A stretch of DNA of 64,000 nt from Candidatus Egerieimonas intestinavium (GCA_018711815.1 DVHU01000104.1:90-64089), one strand, 5' to 3'; positions 30,466 to 36,079 are shown, counted from the first letter of the stretch. Notes: generated from the letters alone by a model not told the origin. A program made the numbers and translations.

Positions 30466-30527
30466 GGGCCGCGGCAGAGAGAGGACTCCGAAATAAATTC
30501 GGAGGAAAAATCTGCGGCGGCCCTTTT
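30466..30527 (+). terminator. Long imperfect hairpin + T-run after the ABC exporter operon
   Basis: GGGCCGCGGCAGA ... CTCCGAA-ataaa-TTCGGAG ... TCTGCGGCGGCCC then TTTT. An outer clamp AAGGAAGCC (30452-30460) pairs with GGCTTCCTT (30545-30553). Confidence 0.7.
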
Positions 30528-30618: not shown

Positions 30619-30647
30619 TTGAAAAAAGTCGTCAAACCATGTATTAT
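30619..30647 (+). promoter_or_regulatory. Candidate promoter of the decarboxylase operon
   Basis: TTGAAA (30619-30624), 17-nt spacer, TATTAT (30642-30647). A consensus TTGACA at 30596-30601 lies just upstream. Confidence 0.4.
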
Positions 30648-30705: not shown

Positions 30706-32142
30706 ATGAGTAACACATCACAAAGCTTAGCAAGTCAAAGAATCGCTTCTTTACTTGACGAAAACAGTTTTGTTGAGATCGGTGGACAGATTACTGCCAG
30801 AAGCACCGACTTCAACTTATCTGCGAAAGAGACTCCGTCTGACGGCGTCATCACCGGCTACGGTGTGATCGACGGCAACCTGGTTTATGTGTACAGCCAG
30901 GACGCTTCCGTGTTAAACGGAACCATCGGAGAGATGCACGCCAAGAAGATTGCAAGACTGTATGAGTTCGCTCTGAAGACCGGCGCACCGGTAATCGGTC
31001 TCATCGACTGTGCGGGCCTGCGGCTTCAGGAGGCCACCGACGCCTTAAATGGCTTCGGAGAAATCTACATGGCTCAGACCATGGCCAGCGGAGTGGTTCC
31101 GCAGATCACCGCCATCTTCGGAAACTGCGGCGGCGGCCTGGCTCTGATTCCCGCCCTGACAGATTTTACTTTCATGGAAGAGAAGAAGGCTAAGCTTTTC
31201 GTTAATTCCCCCAACGCTATCGAGGGAAATACAGCGGCTAAATGCGATACCGCCAGCGCTTCTTACCAGAGCAGCGAGGCTGGCCTGGTGGATTATGTGG
31301 GAGAAGAGGAAGAAATCCTTTCCCAGATCCGGGCTCTGGTTTCCATGCTGCCGGCCAACAATGAGGACGACATGTCTTACATGGAGTGCAGCGATGATCT
31401 GAACCGTGTCTGTGCGGAGCTGGAGAACTGTGTGGGAGATACTTCCATCGCCCTTTCCCAGATCAGCGACGACAACGTGTTCTTTGAGGTGAAGGCAGAT
31501 TACGCCAAGGATATGGTTACCGGCTTCATCAAGCTGAACGGAACCACCGTGGGCGCTGTGGCCAACCGCACAGAGATTTACAACGAGGACGGAGAGAAGA
31601 CGGACAGCTTCGACGCCGTGCTCACCGCCAGAGGAGCCAGAAAGGCAGCGGGCTTCGTGAAGTTCTGCGACGCTTTCAATATTCCGGTGCTGACTCTGAC
31701 TAATGTAACCGGCTTCCATGCCAGCAAGTGCTCTGAGGCAAATATGGCCAAGGCAGTGGCAGAGCTGACATACGCCTTCGCCAACGCCACCGTTCCCAAG
31801 GTAAATGTGGTGATCGGCAAGGCTTACGGCAGCGCATATCTGGCCATGAACAGCAAGTCTATCGGCGCCGATATGGTTTACGCATGGCCGGGCGCAGAGA
31901 TCGGTATGATGGATGCCCGGATGGCAGCTAAGATCATGTATGCCAACGCGGATGCAGCCACCATCAATGAGAAGGCCGCAGAGTACGCGGATCTGCAGTC
32001 CAATGTGACCTCCGCAGCCAGAAGAGGCTATGTGGATACCATTATCCAGCCGGAGGATACCAGAAAATATGTGATTGGTGCTTTTGAAATGCTGTTCACA
32101 AAGAGAGAGAATCGTCCCGACAAGAAGCACGGCACGGTTTAA
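30706..32142 (+). CDS. Acyl-CoA-type carboxyltransferase subunit (MmdA/GcdA-like, 12S-like)
   Basis: 478 aa with a two-lobed carboxyl-transferase domain: GVITGYGVIDGNLVYVYSQD, PVIGLIDCAGLRLQE, AIFGNCGGGLA, PVLTLTNVTGF, GKAYGSAYLAM. GGAGG RBS 8 nt upstream of ATG 30706. Confidence 0.85.
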   Translation: MSNTSQSLASQRIASLLDENSFVEIGGQITARSTDFNLSAKETPSDGVITGYGVIDGNLVYVYSQDASVLNGTIGEMHAKKIARLYEFALKTGAPVIGLIDCAGLRLQEATDALNGFGEIYMAQTMASGVVPQITAIFGNCGGGLALIPALTDFTFMEEKKAKLFVNSPNAIEGNTAAKCDTASASYQSSEAGLVDYVGEEEEILSQIRALVSMLPANNEDDMSYMECSDDLNRVCAELENCVGDTSIALSQISDDNVFFEVKADYAKDMVTGFIKLNGTTVGAVANRTEIYNEDGEKTDSFDAVLTARGARKAAGFVKFCDAFNIPVLTLTNVTGFHASKCSEANMAKAVAELTYAFANATVPKVNVVIGKAYGSAYLAMNSKSIGADMVYAWPGAEIGMMDARMAAKIMYANADAATINEKAAEYADLQSNVTSAARRGYVDTIIQPEDTRKYVIGAFEMLFTKRENRPDKKHGTV

Positions 32143-32155
32143 GCGAGGTGAGCAT

Positions 32156-32914
32156 ATGAAGCAGAGAAAAAATAAAATAGTTACGCTGATGCTGGCAGGT
32201 CTGCTGACCTTCTCCCTTGCCGCCTGCGGAAACACGGAGGATGAGAGCGAGGCCAGAAGCCAGGCTCGGTACGAGGAAGTTAAGGCTGATCTGGAGACAG
32301 GGGCGGAGACCCTGACCAACACCCTGACTGCCCTGACCGACGCGGAGCGGGAGAGCTATAAGGAATCCACAGACTCCTTCACCGTGGCCGCTGTGGAGGC
32401 CTGGGAGGATGTCATGGACGAGGCCGGAGAGCTGGTGCAGATCCAGAGCGTTACCTCTGAGAATGACGAAGATAACTATACGGCCACCGTGCTGGCTGAG
32501 TGCTCCGAGAATGACGTGGAGTTTGTATACACCTACGACAAGGATACCGGCGCGGCTACCAGTATCGCCGTGAATGTGGAGTATTCCCTGGCCACCAATA
32601 TGCAGCGGGCGGGAATGAACACCATCATGGGACTGGGCATTGTGTTCCTGGTGCTGATTTTCCTGTGCTTTATCATTTCCCTGTTCAAGCATGTGAATAA
32701 GGCAGTCAGCAGACAGGAGAAAAAGGAGGAGCCCGTGAAGGCAGCTCCGGCCCCGGCGCCTGTGGCAGAGATCCAGGAGGAGGATCTGACCGATGACCTG
32801 GAGCTGGTGGCGGTGATCACCGCGGCCATCGCGGCGTCCCAGCAGACATCCGCAGACGGATTTGTGGTGCGTTCCATTAAAAAAGCAAATAGAAGTAAAT
32901 GGCAGAGAGCCTAA
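32156..32914 (+). CDS. OadG/MmdD-like small membrane subunit with N-terminal lipoprotein ectodomain
   Basis: Lipobox LTFSLAAC|G, an acidic ~150-aa domain, one TM (GLGIVFLVLIFLCFIISLF), an Ala/Pro linker, and the OadG-type tail LELVAVITAAIAAS. Confidence 0.6.
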   Translation: MKQRKNKIVTLMLAGLLTFSLAACGNTEDESEARSQARYEEVKADLETGAETLTNTLTALTDAERESYKESTDSFTVAAVEAWEDVMDEAGELVQIQSVTSENDEDNYTATVLAECSENDVEFVYTYDKDTGAATSIAVNVEYSLATNMQRAGMNTIMGLGIVFLVLIFLCFIISLFKHVNKAVSRQEKKEEPVKAAPAPAPVAEIQEEDLTDDLELVAVITAAIAASQQTSADGFVVRSIKKANRSKWQRA

Positions 32915-32931
32915 GTTTGGAGGAAGAAAAG

Positions 32932-33297
32932 ATGAAAAATTATACCATTACTGTAAACGGAAACGTGTATGATGTAACTGTTGAAGAGGGCGGCGCAGGA
33001 GCGGCAGCTCCCGTGGCAGCACCCAAGGCGGCTCCCAAGGCAGCCCCCAAAGCAGCAGCTCCCAAGGCCGCAGCCGCAGCAGGCGGCGTAGCCATCAAGG
33101 CTTCTCTGCCCGGCAAGGTAGTAAAGATTGAGGCAAATGTAGGACAGGCAGTAAAGGCCGGCGATAACGTAGTAGTTCTGGAAGCCATGAAAATGGAAGT
33201 TCCGGTTGTTGCTCCCCAGGACGGTACCATCGCAAGCATTGACGTGGCAGTTGGCGACGCAGTGGAATCCGGAGACGCTCTGGCATCCATGAACTAA
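32932..33297 (+). CDS. Biotin carboxyl carrier protein (1.3S/MmdC/GcdC-like)
   Basis: 121 aa. Ala/Pro/Lys linker (APKAAPKAAPKAA) and a biotinyl domain with the motif VLEAMKMEVPV. Confidence 0.9.
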   Translation: MKNYTITVNGNVYDVTVEEGGAGAAAPVAAPKAAPKAAPKAAAPKAAAAAGGVAIKASLPGKVVKIEANVGQAVKAGDNVVVLEAMKMEVPVVAPQDGTIASIDVAVGDAVESGDALASMN

Positions 33298-33372
33298 GAA
33301 TTTACAGACTCTGTAAATTCCCAACAGCGAAAGATACATGTTTGCTGAATTATCGAAACGGGAGGTTAAAAC

Positions 33373-34533
33373 ATGTCTTATATTACAGAGACATTGTCAA
33401 ATCTGGTGAACCAGACCGCATTCCTGAACCTGGAATGGGGCAACTACGTGATGATCCTCGTTGCCTGCGTGTTCCTGTATTTGGCAATTAAAAAAGATTA
33501 TGAGCCGCTGCTGCTGGTGCCCATCGCATTCGGTATGCTGCTGGTTAATATCTATCCGGATATTATGGCTCAGCCCTATGTGGATGCCAACGGTATTTCC
33601 CATGCGGGCGGCCTGCTGCATTACTTCTACCTGATGGACGAGTGGAGTATTCTGCCGTCCCTGATCTTCATGGGAGTGGGCGCTATGACCGACTTCGGTC
33701 CCCTGATCGCCAACCCCAAGAGCTTCCTGATGGGAGCCGCCGCCCAGCTGGGTATCTACGTGGCATACTTCCTGGCCATCTTCATGGGCTTCAACGGGAA
33801 GGCCGCAGCGGCTATCTCCATCATCGGAGGAGCCGACGGACCTACCTCTATCTTCCTGGCCGGAAAATTGGGACAGACGGCCCTGCTGGGGCCCATCGCC
33901 GTGGCGGCATATTCCTATATGTCCCTGGTGCCCATTATCCAGCCGCCGATCATGAAGCTTCTAACCACGGAGAAGGAGCGGAAGATCAAGATGGAGCAGC
34001 TGCGTCCGGTGTCCAAGCTGGAGAAAATTCTGTTCCCCATCGTTATTACCATCGTTGTTTGTATGATCCTGCCCACCACGGCACCCCTGGTTGGTATGCT
34101 GATGCTGGGTAACCTGTTCCGGGAGTCCGGCGTGGTTCATCAGCTGACGGAGACCGCCTCCAACGCCCTGATGTACATCGTGGTAATCCTGCTGGGTACC
34201 TCCGTGGGAGCCACCACCAGCGCAGAGGCTTTCCTGAATCTGGATACCATCAAGATCGTTATCCTGGGTCTGGTGGCCTTCGCCTTCGGTACCGCCGGCG
34301 GCGTTCTTCTGGGCAAACTCATGTGCAAGCTGTCCGGAGGCAAGATCAACCCGCTGATCGGCTCCGCAGGCGTGTCCGCGGTTCCCATGGCAGCCCGTGT
34401 ATCCCAGAAGGTTGGAGCTGAGGCAGATCCCACCAACTTCCTGCTGATGCACGCTATGGGTCCCAACGTGGCAGGCGTTATCGGTACAGCCGTTGCAGCC
34501 GGTACCTTTATGGCAATCTTTGGGGTAATGTAA
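33373..34533 (+). CDS. Na+-translocating decarboxylase beta subunit (OadB/MmdB/GcdB family)
   Basis: 386-aa polytopic protein with family motifs: EPLLLVPIAFGMLLVN, GADGPTSIFLA, NPLIGSAGVSAVPMAARV, MHAMGPNVAGVIG. Confidence 0.9.
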   Translation: MSYITETLSNLVNQTAFLNLEWGNYVMILVACVFLYLAIKKDYEPLLLVPIAFGMLLVNIYPDIMAQPYVDANGISHAGGLLHYFYLMDEWSILPSLIFMGVGAMTDFGPLIANPKSFLMGAAAQLGIYVAYFLAIFMGFNGKAAAAISIIGGADGPTSIFLAGKLGQTALLGPIAVAAYSYMSLVPIIQPPIMKLLTTEKERKIKMEQLRPVSKLEKILFPIVITIVVCMILPTTAPLVGMLMLGNLFRESGVVHQLTETASNALMYIVVILLGTSVGATTSAEAFLNLDTIKIVILGLVAFAFGTAGGVLLGKLMCKLSGGKINPLIGSAGVSAVPMAARVSQKVGAEADPTNFLLMHAMGPNVAGVIGTAVAAGTFMAIFGVM

Positions 34534-34573
34534 ACTGCCGATGCTTGAATAATGAATAGAGAGGAATAAGAAT

Positions 34574-35986
34574 ATGTCAGATATGGTAAAAAAACCGATT
34601 AAAATTACTGAGACTATTCTGCGAGACGCGCACCAGTCTCTGATTGCGACCCGTATGTCCACAGAGCAGATGCTGCCCATCGTAGAAAAGCTGGATAAAG
34701 TGGGTTATCATTCTGTGGAGTGCTGGGGAGGAGCCACCTTCGACGCTTCCCTGCGTTTCCTGAAGGAAGATCCCTGGGACAGACTGAGAAAGTTCCGGGA
34801 GGGCTTCAAGAATACCAAGCTGCAGATGCTCTTCCGCGGACAGAACATCCTGGGCTACCGTCCCTACGCCGACGACGTGGTGGAGTACTTTGTACAGAAA
34901 TCCATCGCCAACGGTATTGATATCATCCGTATTTTCGACTGTCTGAACGATCTGCGCAACCTGCAGACCGCAGTAACCGCAGCCAATAAGGAGGGAGGAC
35001 ACGCTCAGGTGGCGCTGTCCTACACCCTGGGAGACGCTTACACCCTGGAGTACTGGACCAGCATGGCCAAGAAGGTTGAGGAGATGGGCGCTAACTCCAT
35101 CTGTATCAAGGATATGGCCGGTCTGCTGCTGCCGTACCAGGCCACCGAGCTGGTGACAGCGCTGAAATCCGCAGTGAAGATCCCCATCCAGCTGCACACC
35201 CACTACACCTCCGGCGTGGCTTCCATGACTTATTTGAAGGCCGTTGAGGCTGGCGTTGACGTGATCGACACCGCCATGTCTCCCTTCGCGCTGGGAACCT
35301 CCCAGCCGGCCACCGAGGTTATGGTTGAGACCTTCAAGGGAACTCCCTACGACACCGGCTTCGATCAGAAGCTGCTGGCGGAGATCGCCGACTACTTCCG
35401 TCCCATCCGTGACGAGGCTCTGGACAGCGGTCTGTTAAATCCCAAGAATCTGGGCGTAAATATCAAGACCCTGCTGTATCAGGTGCCGGGCGGTATGCTC
35501 TCCAACCTGACCAGCCAGCTGAAGGAGCAGCACGCGGAGGACAAGTTCTACGAGGTTCTGGAAGAGGTGCCGAGAGTAAGAAAAGACCTGGGCGAGCCGC
35601 CTCTGGTAACTCCCTCCTCTCAGATCGTGGGAACTCAGGCTGTGTTCAACGTGATCATGGGCGAGCGCTACAAGATGGTTACCAAGGAGACCAAGGACGT
35701 GCTCAGCGGCAAGTACGGAGCTACCGTGAAGCCTTTCGACCCGGAGGTGCAGAAGAAGTGCATCGGAGACGCAGAGGTAATCACCTGCCGTCCTGCAGAC
35801 CTGCTGGACAACGAGCTGGCTACCCTGGAGTCCGAGATGGCTCAGTACAAAGAGCAGGATGAGGATGTTCTGTCCTACGCCCTGTTCCCCCAGGTGGCTA
35901 CCGACTTCTTCAAGTACAGAGATGCCCAGAAGACTAAGGTGGACGCCACTGTGGCCGACAGCGAAAACGGAGCTTATCCCGTGTAA
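34574..35986 (+). CDS. Oxaloacetate/pyruvate-type carboxyltransferase (OadA / 5S-like) lacking a biotinyl domain
   Basis: 470 aa: KITETILRDAHQSL, ECWGGATFD, LQMLFRGQNILGYR, IKDMAGLL, HTHYTSG. The C-terminal conserved region PSSQIVGTQA is present. There is no AMKM biotin motif. Confidence 0.85.
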   Translation: MSDMVKKPIKITETILRDAHQSLIATRMSTEQMLPIVEKLDKVGYHSVECWGGATFDASLRFLKEDPWDRLRKFREGFKNTKLQMLFRGQNILGYRPYADDVVEYFVQKSIANGIDIIRIFDCLNDLRNLQTAVTAANKEGGHAQVALSYTLGDAYTLEYWTSMAKKVEEMGANSICIKDMAGLLLPYQATELVTALKSAVKIPIQLHTHYTSGVASMTYLKAVEAGVDVIDTAMSPFALGTSQPATEVMVETFKGTPYDTGFDQKLLAEIADYFRPIRDEALDSGLLNPKNLGVNIKTLLYQVPGGMLSNLTSQLKEQHAEDKFYEVLEEVPRVRKDLGEPPLVTPSSQIVGTQAVFNVIMGERYKMVTKETKDVLSGKYGATVKPFDPEVQKKCIGDAEVITCRPADLLDNELATLESEMAQYKEQDEDVLSYALFPQVATDFFKYRDAQKTKVDATVADSENGAYPV

Positions 35987-36014: not shown

Positions 36015-36079
36015 GGGGTTGTTGCACTATTCGATATTCGTTAATTGCAGCAGCCCCGGCGTTCTCTTTTTTTCTTTTT
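36015..36079 (+). terminator. Terminator of the decarboxylase operon
   Basis: GGGGTTGTTGCA (36015-36026) pairs with TGCAGCAGCCCC (36046-36057), 12 bp including 2 G-U. A long T-rich run follows (36067-36079). Confidence 0.65.

Follow-up and report, generated by a model that had tools for sequence, protein, structure and literature searches.

A conserved five-gene operon of Lachnospiraceae with the parts of a split-type sodium-translocating oxaloacetate decarboxylase and a derived acyl-CoA carboxyltransferase-like subunit

We analysed a stretch of 64,000 nucleotides from Candidatus Egerieimonas intestinavium (GCA_018711815.1 DVHU01000104.1:90-64089; the window, below), in which five co-directional genes encode an acyl-CoA-type carboxyltransferase (CT), an OadG-like protein, a free biotin carrier, an OadB-type protein and an OadA-type CT. 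Of the two CT heads, only the oxaloacetate-type one looks catalytically intact, and for this reason the operon most likely encodes an oxaloacetate decarboxylase with a decayed extra CT. Specifically, with a confidence somewhat above even, we read it as a split-type (Firmicute) oxaloacetate decarboxylase that is bound to the membrane, depends on biotin, translocates Na+ and keeps a decayed 12S/PccB-like protein as a fifth subunit.

Layout of the operon

The five open reading frames (ORFs) were re-read at 30706-35986 and their spacings recomputed. This gave the gene set, the order and the intergenic gaps (13, 17, 75 and 40 nucleotides) that a preliminary description of this DNA had claimed, and both of the hairpins that it had named as bracketing terminators form strong folds with a T run behind each. 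The genes and their boundaries are as follows (aa, amino acids).

30706-32142, + strand: PccB/12S-type CT of a derived Lachnospiraceae subfamily; 478 aa; ATG at 30706 preceded by a GGAGG ribosome-binding site
32156-32914, + strand: OadG-like membrane subunit; 252 aa; long N-terminal lipoprotein-like extension
32932-33297, + strand: free biotin carboxyl carrier; 121 aa; EAMKME motif; N-terminal MKNYTITVNGNVYDVTVEE segment
33373-34533, + strand: predicted OadB-type Na+-translocating carboxybiotin decarboxylase; 386 aa
34574-35986, + strand: OadA-type oxaloacetate/pyruvate CT; 470 aa; no association or biotinyl domain
30466-30527, + strand: upstream terminator hairpin; 30466-30523 folds at -37.7 kcal/mol, then TTTT
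36015-36079, + strand: downstream terminator hairpin and operon end; 36015-36057 folds at -23.8 kcal/mol, then T run TTCTCTTTTTTTCTTTTT

The upstream terminator closes ABC-transporter genes and sets the operon apart from them. A scan of the intergenic gaps found nothing on the + strand between the five genes that resembles a terminator with a T run, which agrees, as far as layout goes, with the earlier proposal of a single operon with a shared carrier and pump. Judged from this layout, the five genes appear to form one transcription unit.

Four genes supply the parts of a split oxaloacetate decarboxylase

The OadA, OadB, carrier and OadG parts of a split Na+ oxaloacetate decarboxylase are all present, above curated cut-offs where such cut-offs exist. 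The OadA-type CT consists of HMGL-like and PYC_OADA domains (Pfam), with no biotinyl domain. It scores 762 bits with the NCBIfam model NF008985, 'oxaloacetate decarboxylase subunit alpha' (equivalog cut-off 718), and 559 bits with the '5S' equivalog NF008984 (cut-off 827); the domain model 'pyruvate carboxylase subunit B' comes second among its NCBIfam matches. Its PDB matches are PycB (5ks8, 2e-150, the best), V. cholerae OadA (2nx9, 4.5e-149) and 5S (1rqb, 3e-132), and it is the sole PYC_OADA gene of a genome that has no separate pyruvate carboxylase. OadB, present in a single genomic copy, matches PF03977 (OAD_beta) at 519 bits and TIGR01109 at 479 bits against a cut-off of 191. The carrier matches PF00364 (Biotin_lipoyl) at 60 bits, and its best NCBIfam match, an MmdC-type carrier (86 bits), is below the cut-off of 200.

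The match of the OadG-like protein to PF04277 (OAD_gamma, 84 bits) is confined to aa 151-228, and TIGR01195 gives 54.7 bits against a cut-off of 36. The gene holds the same operon position in relatives, with 27-48% identity, and its lipoprotein-like N-terminal extension of about 150 aa is a family-wide feature and not a local fusion, since many relatives align over the full length (30-45% identity).

In an enzyme of this kind the OadA-like subunit would transfer the carboxyl group from oxaloacetate onto the free biotin carrier, OadB would decarboxylate the carboxybiotin and export Na+, and the long OadG-like lipoprotein would hold the soluble subunits at the membrane. The first gene derives from a 12S/PccB-type acyl-CoA CT; family-wide it has lost about half of its conserved positions, and it might now serve as a structural hub.

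The acyl-CoA-type CT is derived throughout the Lachnospiraceae

The product of the first gene matches Pfam Carboxyl_trans at 374 bits, and its best PDB match is PccB (1vrg, 4e-109, 369 bits), with 12S (1on3) at 1e-93; the 437.6 bits that it scores with the mmdA model TIGR01117 are far under the cut-off of 998.8. A glutaconyl-CoA (GcdA-type) head was rejected because the matches to GcdA are weak and of partial coverage only (3gf3, 72 bits, 5e-19; 1pix, 1e-15), as against 4e-109 for PccB. The PccB 'D422' specificity position was also set aside as a substrate marker: it is Leu in the window CT and Ile or Val in the solved PccB/PCC-beta relatives, so that it does not discriminate.

In an alignment to the solved PccB and PCC-beta structures, the derived CT has DCAGLRLQEA, NVTGFHAS, GKAYGSAY and ANMAKAVAEL where canonical enzymes have DSGGARIQEG, DVPGFLPG, RKAYGGAY and GGIIRHGAKLL (motifs whose catalytic roles we assigned by conservation), together with an insert of 10 aa and an N-terminus that is shorter by about 40 aa. 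We scored 153 CT sequences, sorted by operon type, for four canonical features, namely three hallmark motifs and the absence of the 10-aa insert. The window CT scores 0 of 4. The state of the CT by operon type was as follows.

Classical CT-carrier-OadB: canonical in 9 of 9
CT-carrier-OadA without OadB: canonical in 10 of 12
Five-gene, other families: canonical in 12 of 20; 8 decayed, each differently
Five-gene, Lachnospiraceae: one common derived state in 98 of 98

The decayed CTs of five-gene operons in other Clostridia families (L158, L160, L163, L164, L165, L168, L169, L135) have changed independently and in different motifs; some have wholly lost YGGAY and are 430-500 aa long.

To gauge constraint we took 202 columns, each at least 94% invariant across 34 canonical Clostridia CTs, and followed them in 51 non-redundant Lachnospiraceae sequences. 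There, 95 of the columns are kept, in 16 a different residue has become conserved, and 91 are now variable, the GGIIRHGAK block among them. The partner subunits keep far more of their invariant columns (156 of 171 in the OadA-like subunit and 147 of 172 in OadB), and the first gene has therefore lost constraint selectively. In a FastTree phylogeny of the CTs, midpoint-rooted and with no usable node support, the Lachnospiraceae sequences fall into a single group whose stem measures 0.34 substitutions per site, and their sister is a set of other degenerate sequences, possibly through long-branch attraction. We think it most likely that the derived CT persists as a non-canonical subunit, either as a structural hub or with a changed activity, and unlikely that it acts as a methylmalonyl-, glutaconyl- or malonyl-CoA head.

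The pairing of two CT types is widespread in Clostridia

A scan of one genome per species yielded at least 573 relatives of the CT. Among the best 80 of these loci, which we inspected, 71 have the five genes in the order of the window and in the other 9 a contig end interrupts the locus; the five-gene loci include those of Blautia producta DSM 2950, B. wexlerae, B. hominis, Lactonifactor and Mordavella. In a survey of 151 Lachnospiraceae genera, each represented by a single genome of at least 90% completeness, OadB was above cut-off in 141. The full five-gene order was found in 28 of 40 OadB-centred loci from different genera, the remaining 12 being classical Mmd-like, Gcd-like or plain OadA-carrier-OadB loci, or lone paralogues. 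The genome of the window is 87.5% complete and others are partly incomplete; absences, here and below, mean not found in the genomes searched. The fifth subunit can apparently be lost, since the sampled genus G067 (L120) has an OadA-like gene, OadB and carrier with no Carboxyl_trans match in its genome, and the sampled genus G097 (L089) has a plain cluster of OadA-like gene, carrier and OadB without the acyl-CoA-type CT.

A PccB-like CT at E <=1e-60 was found in 113 genomes of a wider set of 200 from Clostridia, with an identity to the window CT of at least 63% only within Lachnospiraceae and of at most 48% elsewhere. Outside Lachnospiraceae we classified 40 loci from about 38 other families: 20 are CT-(G)-carrier-OadB-OadA, 12 are CT-carrier-OadA with no OadB, 6 are CT-carrier-OadB with no OadA-like gene, and 2 have the CT alone. 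The five-gene layout was found in about 18 other Clostridia families. Since the two CT types are paired across Clostridia loci, the pairing is old and dominant in Clostridia and is not peculiar to the window. One locus (L112, genus G142) has the order CT-carrier-OadA-OadB, an OadB that is 46% identical and a CT that groups with the derived clade of Lachnospiraceae. We found no biochemical assignment of the five-gene set in the literature searched, whose coverage was incomplete.

Genomic context of candidate acyl-CoA substrates

Methylmalonyl-CoA mutase (PF01642) was not found in the genome of the window, in five named Blautia-group carrier genomes (among them the complete Blautia producta chromosome) or in any of the Lachnospiraceae genera (0/151), in a search that matched 8 of 14 control genomes. 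A methylmalonyl-CoA decarboxylase (Mmd) role in the conversion of succinate to propionate was rejected on these grounds: with no mutase found, the context excludes it.

The genome of the window has a complete accB-accC-accDA set. Biotin carboxylase was not found in 48 of the 151 Lachnospiraceae genera, a result confirmed for five of them with the AccC of the window genome as query, and at least 8 of the 48 were confirmed at the locus level to have the full five-gene operon. FabD is present in 30 of these genera, of which 14 have an extra canonical PccB-like CT, 14 an AccDA-type CT and 2 only the derived operon CT; it is absent from the other 18, of which 13 have only the derived CT. Because 28 of the 30 genera that keep FabD carry an additional canonical CT, the derived CT is probably not their source of malonyl-CoA, and it is probably not the acetyl-CoA carboxyltransferase. 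Indeed, 13 of the 15 genomes that have the derived CT only are without FabD. Its presence does not track fatty-acid synthesis, which speaks against the malonyl-CoA head that had been proposed earlier.

The fab clusters of two genomes without biotin carboxylase (e.g. L126 G147, L127 G118) contain neither accB nor accC, and one of them keeps accDA. In all five examined genomes that have FabD and no biotin carboxylase, the carrier of the operon is the only clear biotinyl-domain match genome-wide. The OadA-like subunit and the carrier are, in such genera, the only visible route by which biotin could be loaded with CO2 for the canonical CT. Two canonical PccB-like CTs of about 540 aa (L130:6920-8548, G118; L131:6920-8539, G075) score 608-619 bits in Pfam and have no adjoining carrier gene; both are from genomes in which biotin carboxylase was not found. 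A more tentative idea, which we put forward as possible while leaning against it, is that the oad carrier is a cell-wide carboxyl hub: the 28 of 151 genera (about a fifth) that have neither biotin carboxylase nor AccB, yet retain genes of fatty-acid synthesis along with an AccDA or a stand-alone PccB-like CT, would make malonyl-CoA from oxaloacetate without ATP. The sodium pump would be the core of such a 'distributed transcarboxylase', and the 12S-like subunit of the window, whose genome does have acetyl-CoA carboxylase, would be the leftover docking hub of an ancestral hybrid.

Codon usage predicts high expression

Genome-wide codon counts confirmed the contrast in Arg codons to which the preliminary description had drawn attention. 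In the operon AGA makes up 42%, CGT 27%, CGG 20% and AGG 0% of Arg codons, as against 40% CGG, 15% AGA and 7% CGT in the whole genome. The same signature marks EF-Tu, ribosomal proteins, GAPDH, PPDK and PFOR: when 2047 ORFs are ranked by their share of AGA plus CGT, EF-Tu, S4, S12, GAPDH, S2, S7, PPDK, PFOR and EF-G lead, and the CT, the OadA-like gene and the OadG-like gene stand at ranks 13, 22 and 33. We then computed a codon adaptation index (CAI) against 12 reference genes (EF-Tu, EF-G, ribosomal proteins, GAPDH, PPDK, PFOR and DnaK), which gave the following ranks among 2318 ORFs.

OadA-like: about 30, the best in the operon
Biotin carrier: about 49
OadB: about 73
CT: about 138
OadG-like: about 196

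The operon genes are thus in the top 1-8% of genes, and leaving out the Arg codons hardly moves their ranks. A self-consistent CAI with no reference set was discarded in favour of the 12-gene reference, as it settled on a GC3-type bias that placed the operon near the median. These ranks bear out the earlier hint from codon usage, and the operon is probably highly expressed.

The ATP-dependent phosphoenolpyruvate (PEP) carboxykinase PckA (TIGR00224, 824 bits; C115:2294-3898, minus strand) has CAI rank 3, beside EF-Tu and PFOR. The codon adaptation of PEP carboxykinase, the OadA-like subunit, the carrier and OadB suggests a branch from PEP through oxaloacetate to pyruvate. In such a branch, which would run by way of PEP carboxykinase and the pump in parallel to pyruvate kinase and PPDK, extra energy would be kept as a sodium gradient.

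Comparison with characterised biotin-dependent enzymes

Enterococcus faecalis has a four-subunit membrane oxaloacetate decarboxylase composed of OadA, OadB, OadD (the biotin carrier) and OadH (PMC6193673). The window operon resembles it in having a split alpha subunit, with an OadA that lacks a biotin domain, a free small carrier, OadB and an OadG-like subunit (PMC6193673). The genes of the four-subunit E. faecalis enzyme lie in a citrate-lyase cluster, whereas the window operon starts with a fifth, 12S/PccB-derived subunit, has no adjacent citrate genes and encodes an OadG-like protein with an N-terminal extension of about 150 aa. The OadA-OadB-OadG enzymes of Vibrio cholerae and Klebsiella pneumoniae, which presumably carry out the same reaction, are alike in the CT domain of OadA (2nx9, 4.5e-149), in OadB and in the OadG-family subunit; their OadA, unlike that of the window, has its own association and biotinyl domains, and they have no acyl-CoA-type subunit.

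The methylmalonyl-CoA:pyruvate transcarboxylase of Propionibacterium (EC 2.1.3.1; 12S + 5S + 1.3S) likewise combines an acyl-CoA CT (1on3, 1e-93) with a keto-acid CT (1rqb, 3e-132, although the window protein stays below the '5S' equivalog cut-off and passes that for OadA), and its 1.3S subunit is similar to the window carrier in its length of about 120 aa and its VTVNG..YDV N-terminal segment. It differs in having no membrane subunits and a canonical 12S. In the window, OadB and the OadG-like gene lie inside the operon, where a soluble complex would have neither, the 12S-like subunit is degenerate (95 of 202 columns kept, four hallmark motifs altered), and there is no methylmalonyl-CoA pathway. 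The Mmd of Veillonella parvula and Propionigenium (MmdABCDE) shares the order of CT, small subunit, free carrier and OadB-type pump, and the NCBIfam MmdC and MmdD models match the window operon weakly. That enzyme lacks an OadA-type subunit and acts together with methylmalonyl-CoA mutase, whereas the window CT is far under the cut-off of the MmdA model TIGR01117, has none of the four canonical features and has no mutase partner in the genomes searched, the 151 genera included. From GcdABCD the window operon is set apart by a CT that is not GcdA-type.

The Clostridium thermocellum cluster Cthe_0699-0701/Clo1313_1523-1526 holds an acyl-CoA-type CT, a gamma-like subunit, a carrier and an OadA-like CT in one place (PMC3561251, PMC5414155, PMC3039559). 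No OadB is named for it in the cited papers, and the sampled Clostridia loci of that layout have canonical CT motifs, unlike the window. It has been recruited in one modelling study as a transcarboxylase for malonyl-CoA, in an organism without a standard acetyl-CoA carboxylase (PMC5414155), and in other papers it is labelled as an oxaloacetate decarboxylase or its CT is seen in membrane fractions (PMC3561251, PMC3039559).

Alternative readings of the operon

The operon could be a hybrid of transcarboxylase and pump, in which a CT active on acetyl-CoA/malonyl-CoA would allow oxaloacetate-derived carboxybiotin to be used either for Na+ export by OadB or for ATP-free synthesis of malonyl-CoA. In support of such a hybrid, the clusters without OadB in 12 of the 40 loci from other Clostridia families can act only as transcarboxylases, the C. 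thermocellum cluster Clo1313_1523-1526 has been modelled as a former of malonyl-CoA (PMC5414155), the specificity position of the CT is Leu/Val and not Asp, and 30 Lachnospiraceae genera have FabD without biotin carboxylase, with the carrier as the only clear biotinyl protein in each of the five examined. We nevertheless consider it unlikely, given the extra canonical CT in 28 of those 30 genera, the absence of FabD from 13 of the 15 derived-CT-only genomes, the altered hallmark motifs with 91 of 202 invariant positions relaxed, and the complete accB-accC-accDA set that the window genome already has. The preliminary description had suggested a related switch of one subunit set between a soluble transcarboxylase and a membrane decarboxylase. 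That part of its proposal is plausible for Clostridia with a canonical CT, and for Lachnospiraceae without biotin carboxylase by way of their separate canonical CTs, whereas the window itself lends it no such support.

Its other suggestion, that two substrate-specific heads share the carrier and pump, amounts to oxaloacetate and an acyl-CoA (methylmalonyl- or malonyl-CoA) each driving Na+ export through OadB. Both CT genes are intact, conserved and, by layout, co-transcribed, and the CT is fully canonical in 12 of the 20 five-gene operons of other families. Yet a source of methylmalonyl-CoA is missing (mutase in none of the 151 genera), the CT is not of the GcdA type and, with altered motifs and 91 of 202 columns relaxed, is degenerate across Lachnospiraceae, and to spend ATP-made malonyl-CoA on Na+ pumping would be futile. 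We regard two active heads as very unlikely, and the claim of methylmalonyl-, glutaconyl- or malonyl-CoA specificity was not supported. Quite unlikely, too, is a reverse operation in which the Na+ gradient or AccC would carboxylate the carrier and oxaloacetate would be made from pyruvate, as by an anaplerotic pyruvate carboxylase. This direction would suit the sole PYC_OADA gene of a genome with no separate pyruvate carboxylase, as well as the best PDB match of its product (PycB, 5ks8) and the second NCBIfam match, and in vitro reversal of these pumps was reportedly achieved by Dimroth and Hilpert in 1984. Biotin carboxylase, however, is missing from 48 of 151 genera, at least 8 of them with the full five-gene operon, so the conserved function cannot depend on AccC, and a PycA/PycB-type pyruvate carboxylase was rejected as that function. 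Moreover, PEP carboxykinase is among the three most codon-adapted genes, which implies a supply of oxaloacetate independent of the pump, and the very high codon adaptation of the operon suits catabolic flux more than anaplerosis.

Several points also count against the oxaloacetate decarboxylase with a decayed fifth subunit that we favour. The counts come from genera that are related to one another and so are not independent, and picking the canonical comparison CTs by motif score makes the contrast somewhat too large. In more than 100 genomes the derived CT is still an intact ORF, and 42% of its positions show a conservation of at least 90%; this conservation and the 16 switched positions would fit a changed catalytic specificity as well as they fit a scaffold role. 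It also keeps the two glycines of CGGG, which we take to be the acyl-CoA oxyanion hole. Pyruvate kinase and PPDK, the latter highly codon-adapted, are both encoded in this genome. The branch from PEP carboxykinase to the pump is therefore not obligatory, and the idea that the pump is the sole route from PEP to pyruvate for want of pyruvate kinase was dropped. Finally, the assignment of oxaloacetate decarboxylase is drawn from the genes, and with it the predicted Na+ pumping and direction of flux, the possible scaffold role of the CT and the probable level of expression.

Implications

The operon belongs to the core genome of the Lachnospiraceae, which count among the most abundant bacteria of the gut, and it appears to be highly expressed. 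If it encodes a true sodium pump fed by PEP carboxykinase, it would represent an unrecognised energy-conserving step in their fermentation of sugars, and would explain a widespread gene set that annotation pipelines call, by turns, methylmalonyl-CoA decarboxylase, propionyl-CoA carboxylase or pyruvate carboxylase. Mislabelling of the first gene may inflate genome-based predictions of propionate production by the succinate pathway. A pseudo-enzyme subunit kept over more than 100 genera would be a clear case of a catalytic subunit put to another role, and the relatives without biotin carboxylase point to ATP-free synthesis of malonyl-CoA as a natural trait.

Putative regulatory signals

Two further features lie upstream of and within the operon.

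30619-30647, + strand: promoter-like site TTGAAA-17-TATTAT; 10 of 12 matches in a consensus scan, a pattern match only; 59 nucleotides upstream of the first start codon
33298-33320, + strand: AT-rich 10-bp hairpin without a T run, found by folding; directly 3' of the stop codon of the carrier gene, in the 75-nucleotide gap

The hairpin was considered as an internal terminator or conserved regulator and rejected as either, as it has no T run and is confined to the nearest Blautia-type relatives: it is matched nearly base for base in the Blautia producta and B. hominis loci and is missing from most relatives. The gap between carrier and OadB genes in which it lies has a median length of 41 nucleotides in relatives, as compared with 75 in the window.

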